From Candidatus Nanopusillus sp. (lineage in GTDB: Archaea; Nanobdellota; Nanobdellia; Nanobdellales; Nanobdellaceae): a DNA stretch of 26,353 nucleotides. A program made the translations under genes and the position numbers. Location of the stretch: NCBI GenBank assembly GCA_036845085.1, contig DAIUEN010000004.1, forward strand, positions 1 through 26,353, read 5' to 3'. Positions within the stretch are counted from its first letter, which is position 1, and each line of letters starts with the position of its first letter. The notes under the pieces are model-generated. The model did not search any database. It had not been told where the DNA came from and worked only from the letters and a program-made list of their open reading frames with translations. Positions 19,698 through 20,603 of this stretch are shown piece after piece.

Positions 19698-20603
19698 ATG
19701 AATGAAATACTTAGAGAACTAAAGAGATTAATTAATTCTATACCTGAGGGAAAAATAACAACATTTGATATTTTATCAGACTTTTTAGGTTCGAAATATG
19801 CAGTTAAATTTATTGTACAAAATTATAAAAAACTTAAAGCTCCATGGTGGCGGGTTGTTAGATCTGATGGATATATTAAAGATCATATTCAGGAAAAAAT
19901 TCTTAAAAAGGAAGGCATTGTTATAGAAAATCATAAAATAAAAGATGTAGATAAGTATATATTTAGAGATTTTGATATAAAAGATAAAATATTGGAAAAA
20001 TATAGAAAAATTCAAGAAGAGTTATCAAAAAAAATTTTACTTGAAGATAGATTTTATAAATTAGAAATTTTTGGTGGTGTGGATATAAGTTATAAAAAAG
20101 AACATGCAATAGTAGTGTTTGTTATACTAGATAAAGATTTAAATATCATTAATAAGTATATATTTAAAACTAATGTAGAATTTCCATATATACCATCTTT
20201 TTTATCTTTTAGAGAAGGAGAACCTATAATAAAAACATTTAATCAAATTAATGAAAATATAGATGTATTATTCGTTAATGGACATGGAATTTTACATCCT
20301 ATTAAAATGGGTCTTGCAACGTATATTGGAGTGACTTTAGATATACCGACTATAGGAATAACAAAAAAATTATTAAAGATAGAGAATATGAAAATAGAAA
20401 ATAACTATATATTTGTTAATAATGAGAGAGTAGGATATAAACTAGTGAAATTCAATGATTTTGTATATGTATCTCCGGGAAATTTAATTTCTTTAGATAG
20501 TTCTATAGCTATATCTGAAAAGTTCTGGATTATGGGAAAATATCCAGAACCTATAAGGTTAGCGGATGAAATAAGTAAAAAATTAAAAAAATTTATTCTT
20601 TAA
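19698..20603 (+). CDS. nfi: fusion protein: N-terminal alkyltransferase-like (MGMT-fold, no Cys) domain plus C-terminal endonuclease V domain
   Basis: N-terminus: [17 protein letters not shown]...[13 protein letters not shown]...ILKKEGI is the MGMT C-terminal fold with PWWR in place of PCHR. C-terminus: [57 protein letters not shown] are EndoV blocks. Confidence 0.8.
   Translation: [301 protein letters not shown]

Follow-up and report, generated by a model that had tools for sequence, protein, structure and literature searches.

Endonuclease V (EndoV) of Thermotoga maritima (Tma) holds its metal and catalytic site in four residues, D43, E89, D110 and H214, as set out by Mi et al. (2010; PMC3025561). 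By 2021 the only archaeal EndoVs that had been characterised were Afu, Pfu and Tba EndoV and a fusion protein of Ferroplasma acidarmanus, with no archaeal structure or genetics. The Ferroplasma protein, AGTendoV, joins an N-terminal module consisting of the AGT C-terminal domain only to a C-terminal EndoV and is reported to have both activities (Kanugula et al. 2005, as described in PMC10779285 and PMC7690668). An archaeal fusion of an alkyltransferase-like (ATL) protein to EndoV was noted by Tubbs et al. in 2009, as cited in PMC10779285, where it is also speculated that the EndoV part is an XPG-like nuclease recruited by the lesion-sensing ATL. Here we describe a gene of the same archaeal architecture in a 26,353-nucleotide stretch of Candidatus Nanopusillus sp. 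(assembly GCA_036845085.1, contig DAIUEN010000004.1, positions 1 to 26,353), which is referred to throughout as the window. Its EndoV domain carries Asn at the position of Tma Asp110, a replacement that recurs among archaeal EndoVs.

The open reading frame (ORF; 19698..20603, plus strand) is complete from ATG to TAA and encodes 301 amino acids plus the stop; its extent and the peptides and codon positions reported for it in a preliminary description are exact. The fusion of an MGMT-fold domain to an EndoV domain, also proposed there, was borne out by Pfam, profile searches, AlphaFold and Foldseek. The N-terminal domain (residues 1-95; 19698..19982, plus strand) consists of one MGMT/AGT C-terminal fold, to which belong a helix at the N-terminus and, at the C-terminus, a beta-hairpin and a 'KYxFxDF' extension, while the EndoV domain (residues 96-301; 19983..20600, plus strand) has the RNase H-like fold. 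Pfam placed Endonuclease_5 (PF04493) on residues 108-290 with E=2.3e-48 and 164.9 bits against a cut-off of 23.4, and DNA_binding_1 (PF01035, the MGMT C-terminal domain) on residues 10-73 with E=2.8e-6 and 27.5 bits against a cut-off of 27. The EndoV part scored below the cut-offs of two NCBIfam equivalog models (NF041102, 156.7 bits against 300; NF008629, 140.4 against 230) and matched Tma EndoV in the PDB at E=4e-30 by HMMER. A profile built from the N-domains of 14 orthologs matched the ATL structures of Vibrio (2kif, E=5e-15) and Schizosaccharomyces pombe (Atl1, 3gva, E=4e-14), whereas two-domain AGTs were reached only at E=1e-5 to 0.1 and archaeal AGT structures at E=1e-5 to 1e-4. An AlphaFold2 model computed from a 70-sequence alignment had a mean pLDDT of 96.7 and a pTM of 0.91. 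By Foldseek, the model matched T. maritima EndoV over its C-terminal part (TMt 0.82, prob 1.00, 33% identity) and, over its N-terminal part, the structures 2kif and 3gx4 (TMt 0.73 and 0.70). The fusion architecture is real, far beyond chance, and the pTM suggests that the two domains are held in a fixed mutual arrangement. No solved structure holding both an MGMT-fold and an EndoV domain was found.

The pairing of the two folds in one polypeptide recurs among the protein's nearest relatives. An HMMER scan of 1.84 billion cluster representatives (50% identity) returned 3,696 relatives, and 77 of the best 150 were of fusion length. The gene is the Nanopusillaceae ortholog of an archaeal MGMT-domain/EndoV fusion family; the protein is an ordinary ortholog of deposited 'endonuclease V' proteins, its architecture has already been published, and it is very probably of the published archaeal ATL-EndoV kind. 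Set against the published description of Ferroplasma AGTendoV, it differs in having PWWR in place of the PCHR motif, an eroded alkyltransferase pocket and Asn at the Asp110 position. The two intact active sites of the Ferroplasma protein are therefore not found here, on account of PWWR and Asn194.

The EndoV metal site in the protein, its orthologs and other archaea

Active-site columns were mapped by HMMER alignment to PDB chains, with literature numbering, and by multiple alignment; the Tma EndoV sequence used for this purpose was entered by hand, and its numbering agrees with the PDB alignments. Asp129 of GGVDISY (20082..20084, plus strand) aligned with Tma Asp43, the indispensable catalytic metal ligand, and Glu173 of FREGEP (20214..20216, plus strand) with the metal ligand Glu89, both retained as the preliminary description had it. 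The same description had placed Asn in the VDGxG block at the Asp110 column, and PDB and multiple alignments agree that Asn194 (AAT, 20277..20279, plus strand) stands there. Its second metal-site substitution was a misassignment. The His of the 'SxGH' block had been equated with Tma His214 but corresponds to Tma His185, in a naturally variable, non-metal column (H38/N20/S13 in single-domain relatives) that is occupied in the window protein by Asn262 of the 'SPGH' block (AAT, 20481..20483, plus strand). Tma His214 itself lies in 'PEPTRLAHIY', and the true fourth metal-site residue of the window protein is Asp290 (20565..20567, plus strand). Asp is a common alternative to His in this column (H32/D30 in single-domain relatives), and Tma H214D cuts at inosine according to Mi et al. 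(2010). Since Asp290 fills the His214 column as the normal alternative, one metal-site substitution remains of the two that had been proposed, and the predicted catalytic tetrad is Asp129-Glu173-Asn194-Asp290 (D-E-N-D). Measured against the canonical set of Asp43, Glu89, Asp110, His214 (His or Asp) and Lys139, Asn194 alone deviates, Lys139 being kept as Lys223 (20364..20366, plus strand). The earlier statement that both halves are altered relative to the active AGT-EndoV fusion consequently holds for PWWR and Asn194 and fails for the second metal-site change.

The set of residues that recognise the lesion is complete. The PYIP strand-separating wedge (P163-Y164-I165-P166; 20184..20195, plus strand) is invariant in the clade, as is His200 (20295..20297, plus strand), the counterpart of the lesion- and DNA-binding residue Tma His116. 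All other wedge and Gly-rich hypoxanthine-pocket positions (Tma Y80, L85, G111, G113, G121, G136 and L142) are likewise present and invariant in 30/30 orthologs, and so are the S182 and G184 columns, where the window protein has Ser259-Pro-Gly. The protein shares its fold, wedge, pocket, Asp43, Glu89 and Lys139 with Tma EndoV (2w35) and with the engineered Tma D110N mutant (6ozf), and differs from the Tma enzyme in having Asp as fourth ligand instead of His, Ile in place of Arg118 and an extra N-terminal domain. The top-scoring PDB sequence for the EndoV domain was in fact 6ozf, because the two have 'NGxG' in common; the Asn is engineered in the mutant, whereas it is natural and fixed in the window clade. 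Among the clade-specific positions of the EndoV domain that were scanned, there was no new acidic residue near the site that might compensate for the substitution; E175 and E291 are shared with Asp-type proteins, those with Asp at this column.

Conservation within the clade leaves little room for an error. A homology search recovered 29 fusion orthologs of 49-65% identity from Nanopusillus, Nanopusillaceae, Nanoarchaeota and Nanobdella aerobiophila, and of the species-representative genomes scanned, those with the gene were Nanopusillus acidilobi (complete), Nanobsidianus stetteri and five metagenome-assembled genomes (MAGs). These genes are true orthologs with conserved synteny in genomes of about 0.6 Mb (N. 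aerobiophila AP019769.1 and N. acidilobi CP010514.1). The closest ortholog in any collection is only 65% identical, and the window lineage is apparently related to Nanopusillaceae with no close sequenced representative. The database orthologs of N. acidilobi, N. aerobiophila, N. stetteri and Nanopusillaceae MAGs (58-65% identical) share the architecture, PWWR, the DEND tetrad and synteny; they are annotated 'endonuclease V', with neither fusion nor Asn flagged. Nothing essential sets the window protein apart from them, and it represents roughly a genus-level relative. Asn occupies the Asp110 column in 30/30 clade members, all of which also have a PCHR motif without Cys (PWWR in most). Asp129, Glu173 and Asp290 are invariant across the 30 orthologs, and the mean pairwise identity of the EndoV domain is 65%. 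As a separate observation, the Nanobsidianus stetteri ortholog (L003:2001-2882, a single-cell genome) has Asp (GAT) at the Glu89 equivalent and hence a D-D-N-D tetrad; Tma E89D is reported as active by Mi et al. (PMC3025561).

Since the Asn and Asp codons are one base apart (AAT and GAT), a single G-to-A error of sequencing or assembly, or a decaying gene, might have produced Asn194, and the preliminary description had raised this doubt about codon 194. We consider the chance of this negligible. Asn recurs in all 30 orthologs from independent assemblies, and its codon is AAT at each of the nine orthologous loci for which there is DNA, two of them in complete genomes; the ORF is intact, synteny is conserved, both domains are strongly conserved and the model is of high confidence throughout. 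Sequencing error and pseudogene status are excluded by these comparative data. The orthologs share Asn in full at the Asp110 column and only in part at codon 262, where the clade reads N23/H6/Y1. In a neighbour-joining (NJ) tree of EndoV domains the Asn-type window clade was monophyletic in 48/50 bootstraps, and its sister group consisted of single-domain Asp-type EndoVs, not other fusions, the deep topology being too weak for the origins of the fusion to be counted.

The substitution extends well beyond this clade. In the scan described above, the whole Nanopusillaceae clade collapses to one representative, the window protein itself, and Asn was found at the Asp110 column in 36 of the best 150 of the 3,696 representatives, a sample enriched for Asn-type proteins since the queries were Asn-type. 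Among the 77 fusion-length relatives the tetrads were DEDH in 55, DEDD in 12, DENH in 4 and DEND in 3, and among the 73 single-domain relatives DEDH in 23, DEDD in 8, DENH in 22 and DEND in 7. By eye, the motif '...(V/I)NGHG(I/V)AHPR...' was unambiguous in the Asn-type proteins, whose named members come from Hydrothermarchaeota, Asgard (Atabeyarchaeia), Bathyarchaeia / MCG-15 and Micrarchaeota; Afu EndoV aligned as Asp-type. One fusion of 307 amino acids (P0258) combines intact PCHR, Tyr and Arg finger with a DEND EndoV, so the Asn-type EndoV is not limited to Cys-less fusions, and Cys-less fusions among the best 150 carry either residue (Asp 31, Asn 6). For 344 EndoV domains placed on an NJ tree, Fitch parsimony called for at least 24 D/N changes, with the caution that the trees are distance-based and crude and that this profile-search sample is enriched for Asn-type proteins in the same way. 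Pairs of one Asn-type and one Asp-type protein reach 54-56% identity. Asn194 as an innovation unique to Nanopusillaceae is ruled out by the exhaustive HMMER scan and the profile search.

The replacement at Asp110 goes together with variation at one other column. Lys139 is absolute in Asp-type proteins (K221, n=221), whereas the Asn-type proteins outside the window clade (n=92) have R39, K34, Q6, T4, S3 and further residues; the window clade (n=30) has K27 and R3. The His214 column reads H164, D56 and N1 in Asp-type, H81, D10 and R1 in other Asn-type and D29 in the window clade. None of the three groups shows more than slight variation at Y80, G113, H116, G121, G136, S182 and G184, and Asp43 and Glu89 are kept in 36/38 Asn-type proteins of the cluster scan and 56/56 of the profile search. 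Judged from these alignments, DEN[H/D] or 'Asn-type' proteins form a widespread, so far undescribed class of archaeal EndoVs to which the window protein belongs. The Asn-type subclass with its Lys139 coupling, the degeneration of the N-domain past the ATL state and, by way of correction, the intact fourth metal ligand of this protein appear not to have been described before. We found no paper pairing 'endonuclease V' with 'D110N' or with 'Nanopusillus' in the open literature, outside which key primary papers lie.

A separate group of single-domain EndoV-like proteins (P0051, P0056, P0057, P0059, P0065, P0066, P0070, P0072, P0073, P0085 and P0088) was also observed. Its members have Pro, Lys, Ser or Arg at the Asp110 column, Asn, Asp, Ser or Glu at the Lys139 column and Gly, Lys, Ser, Arg or (in P0056 only) His at the His214 column. 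Asp43, Glu89 and the PYIP wedge are still present in every member except P0085 and P0088. They are probably non-catalytic paralogs.

The N-terminal MGMT-fold domain

The defining features of ATLs are an Arg finger and a Tyr, both conserved, and, in Atl1, the pocket residues P50, W56 and R69 (PMC10779285). The N-domain of the window protein was aligned with Atl1, Vibrio Atl, the human AGT (hAGT) C-domain and catalytic fusions. It shares with the ATLs of S. pombe (Atl1; 3gva/3gx4) and V. parahaemolyticus (Atl; 2kif) the single MGMT C-terminal fold, the N-terminal helix, a C-terminal extension and the replacement of Cys by Trp (PWHR, PWFR and, here, PWWR). In P49-W50-W51-R52 (19842..19853, plus strand), the motif as read in the preliminary description, both the acceptor Cys and the catalytic-network His of PCHR are absent, and the AGT signature (I/V)PCHR(V/I) is accordingly missing from a domain that retains the AGT/MGMT C-terminal DNA-binding fold. 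Thus the domain resembles an ATL in consisting of the MGMT C-domain only and in having Trp50 for Cys.

The resemblance does not extend to the remaining ATL features. Phe23 (19764..19766, plus strand) takes the place of the Tyr that flips the base (hAGT Y114, Atl1 Y25) and is Phe in 9/9 orthologous genes, while Lys37 (19806..19808, plus strand) stands at the Arg-finger column (hAGT R128, Atl1 R39), where the nine genes have Lys in 8 and Arg in 1. The recognition helix 'ARAVG', made of small residues, reads 'VKFIV'. A deletion of four residues takes out the Asn-hinge or Atl1-P50 segment, and another of seven residues takes out the active-site loop (hAGT 'GNYSGG' with Y158/S159; Atl1 R69 loop), so that W56 is the Atl1 pocket residue that is retained. 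With its Tyr and Arg finger replaced and its pocket loops deleted, the domain is not a canonical ATL. The changes of Tyr to Phe and Arg to Lys are both conservative, and some base flipping may be possible.

A profile search identified the nearest relatives of the N-domain as stand-alone MGMT-family proteins of about 100 amino acids from DPANN archaea. Among 120 such homologs, 105 have PCHR, 118 the flipping Tyr and 115 the Arg finger. Because these nearest relatives are mostly of the PCHR type with Tyr and Arg finger, the ancestor of the N-domain was presumably a short catalytic AGT, and its loss of Cys looks independent of that in bacterial and fungal ATLs. The mean pairwise identity of the N-domain in the clade is 54%, with IPxGK, PWWRV, EGI and KYLFxDF nearly invariant, a pattern of conservation which indicates that the domain is under selection. 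We propose that the domain is now vestigial as an alkyltransferase, with alkyl acceptance impossible and the pocket eroded, and that the two Trp of PWWR probably plug the remainder of the collapsed pocket. Packed rigidly on the EndoV domain, it would most likely serve as a structural accessory or one making non-specific DNA contacts.

Cleavage or binding by the EndoV domain

The preliminary description had offered two possibilities, a lesion-binding or lesion-sensing protein and an EndoV with unusual metal chemistry; both survive, and we favour the second. Our preferred interpretation, held with even confidence and no higher, is that the domain still functions as an EndoV and that its metal site has been retuned, which would make it slower, more confined to the lesion and possibly more active with Mn2+. 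A deaminated purine would most likely lead it to nick the strand one nucleotide to the 3' side. The amide of Asn194 could still ligate metal through its carbonyl oxygen, with the loss of one negative charge, and because Asn194 drops one charge the chemistry is predicted to be slower or more lesion-restricted, or to prefer Mn2+, with little non-specific nuclease activity. Such behaviour has a parallel in the work of Mi et al. (2010; PMC3025561). With Mn2+ and excess enzyme, only D43 mutants of Tma EndoV are reported there to have lost inosine-specific cleavage, while the other active-site mutants kept it and lost the non-specific nuclease. From that work it is plausible that less non-specific nuclease would benefit a genome of 25% GC at high temperature. 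That Asn arises repeatedly and naturally among archaeal EndoVs also weakens any inference from it to a loss of catalysis, and the switching between D and N in closely related proteins resembles a polymorphism that is tolerated. A further argument comes from Asp43. The mouse D52A mutant, its equivalent, binds substrate more strongly than the wild type; because Asp43, dispensable for binding, is nonetheless kept in Asn-type proteins, selection would still appear to act on catalysis and not on binding alone. The retention of Lys223, Glu173 and Asp290 in the window clade over deep divergence supports catalysis as well. Finally, these symbionts have kept the gene in highly reduced genomes; they are associated with thermophiles, a setting in which the deamination of adenine should weigh appreciably.

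Several observations weigh against a working nuclease. Asp43, Glu89 and Asp110 are called crucial metal ligands in other EndoV papers, with Asp110 crucial for activity, and D110N was engineered in Tma EndoV to crystallise the enzyme on inosine DNA (PDB 6ozf). The Arg118 column is lost in the window clade, and the variation at Lys139 could mean that catalytic constraint was relaxed after the change from D to N. In RNase H, the equivalent D-to-N mutants (E. coli D70N and B. halodurans D132N) are inactive, and we know of no Asn-type EndoV that has been assayed.

These points lend a smaller but appreciable probability to the main rival, a non-cleaving lesion reader. As a natural substrate trap it would depend on metal for binding to hypoxanthine or inosine, in either DNA or RNA, would not hydrolyse, and would mark or shield the lesion or hand it to another nuclease, with the former AGT domain adding DNA contacts. 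The change used to obtain 6ozf is the same, the crucial role described for Asp110 and the relaxation of Lys139 in Asn-type proteins alone are as such a reader would predict, EndoV binds lesions tightly with binding stimulated by Ca2+, and the binding residues are all conserved. However, a reader has no need of Asp43, which is nearly invariant in Asn-type proteins, and Lys223 (27 K, 3 R), Glu173 and Asp290 persist in the window clade. Non-D43 active-site mutants of the Tma enzyme still cut at inosine with Mn2+ according to Mi et al., frequent switching between D and N among close relatives points to a tolerated variant and not to a one-way loss, and a hyperthermophile-associated reduced genome would presumably be left without a cutting EndoV. 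The same idea can be widened to all DEN[H/D] proteins, which would then be a large unrecognised class of substrate-trapping pseudo-nucleases that bind hypoxanthine or inosine without cutting. In many archaeal lineages they may act as damage markers, as blocks to replication or transcription, or as inosine-RNA binders, and loss of the Asp110 charge may have freed the otherwise absolute constraint on Lys139; this extension we put forward tentatively and judge less likely than not. More doubtful by far is a dual sensor, in which an ATL-like half senses O6-alkylguanine and an EndoV half with two altered ligands senses deaminated bases. Trp in place of the acceptor Cys, an N-domain profile closer to ATL structures than to two-domain AGTs and the archaeal ATL-EndoV fusion noted in PMC10779285 all speak for it. 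Yet the metal ligands differ in one place only, the equation with His214 having been an alignment error, and the N-domain has Phe for Tyr, Lys for the Arg finger, the P50 segment and R69 active-site loop deleted, and 'VKFIV' in its recognition helix. Of the ATL-like damage-sensing domain in the preliminary description, the change of Cys to Trp stands, and the best PDB matches are ATLs, while the Tyr, Arg finger and pocket loops that sensing would employ are lost, and by this comparison sensing of alkylated bases by the N-domain is unlikely. The published XPG-like idea presumes a working ATL pocket, in contrast to the window protein, which is without one.

Genomic setting and significance

The fusion gene is monocistronic. 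A small membrane-protein gene (19423..19659, minus strand) diverges from it across a 38-nt spacer, and it converges with the aIF5A gene (20593..20991, minus strand), with an 11-nt overlap of the 3' ends (20593..20603). The order in the neighbourhood is RadA, a SufBD-like protein, a SufC-like ABC ATPase, L15e, the small membrane protein, the fusion, aIF5A, EndoIII, histone, PCNA and a DEAD/MZB helicase, in DNA of about 25% GC throughout the window, and the neighbourhood of the gene in Nanobdella aerobiophila (AP019769.1) is the same. Rfam and tRNA scans gave no match overlapping the fusion gene.

Among these neighbours (16541..25770), the genes of DNA metabolism, which are also kept in N. aerobiophila, encode RadA, EndoIII (an HhH-GPD protein with an FeS motif; 21044..21685), histone, PCNA and the helicase, an 877-amino-acid DEAD-box protein with an MrfA-type Zn-binding (MZB) domain. 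Because strands are mixed, this run of genes is not one operon. No PCNA-interaction motif is conserved at the C-terminus across the fusion clade; the C-termini of P0020, P0024 and P0026 have 'SLLxF/YL'-like tails resembling archaeal PCNA-interaction motifs, and residues 294-301 of the window protein include 'KLKKFIL'. Elsewhere in the window, an archaellum gene cluster (3222..6742, minus strand) encodes a FlaI-like T2SSE ATPase, a FlaH-like KaiC ATPase and FlaC/D/E-like proteins, which is of note given the presumably reduced symbiont genome. A full-length Rfam tRNA match of 48.2 bits spanning 108 nt (11284..11391, minus strand), for which ARAGORN made no call, is probably an intron-containing archaeal tRNA, and three consecutive ORFs of 274, 304 and 352 amino acids (13342..16534, plus strand) had no Pfam match at E<=1e-5.

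The locus is not categorically new, and its interest is that it exposes a departure from the catalytic tetrad accepted for EndoV, one that is both widespread and testable. A domain of AGT descent which, through loss of its flipping residues and pocket loops, lies beyond the ATL state counsels caution against calling every Cys-less MGMT domain a damage sensor. EndoV is used for the detection and enrichment of inosine, for which a thermostable variant of high specificity, or one that does not cleave, would be useful. Asp110 has been treated as an essential ligand and D110N as a dead or trapping mutant, yet Asn is the natural residue in a whole family of symbionts and in roughly a quarter of the nearest relatives, across several archaeal phyla and coupled to variation at Lys139. 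Either the canonical tetrad is not obligatory and an amide ligand is tolerated, or many archaea carry readers of inosine or lesions in place of nucleases.

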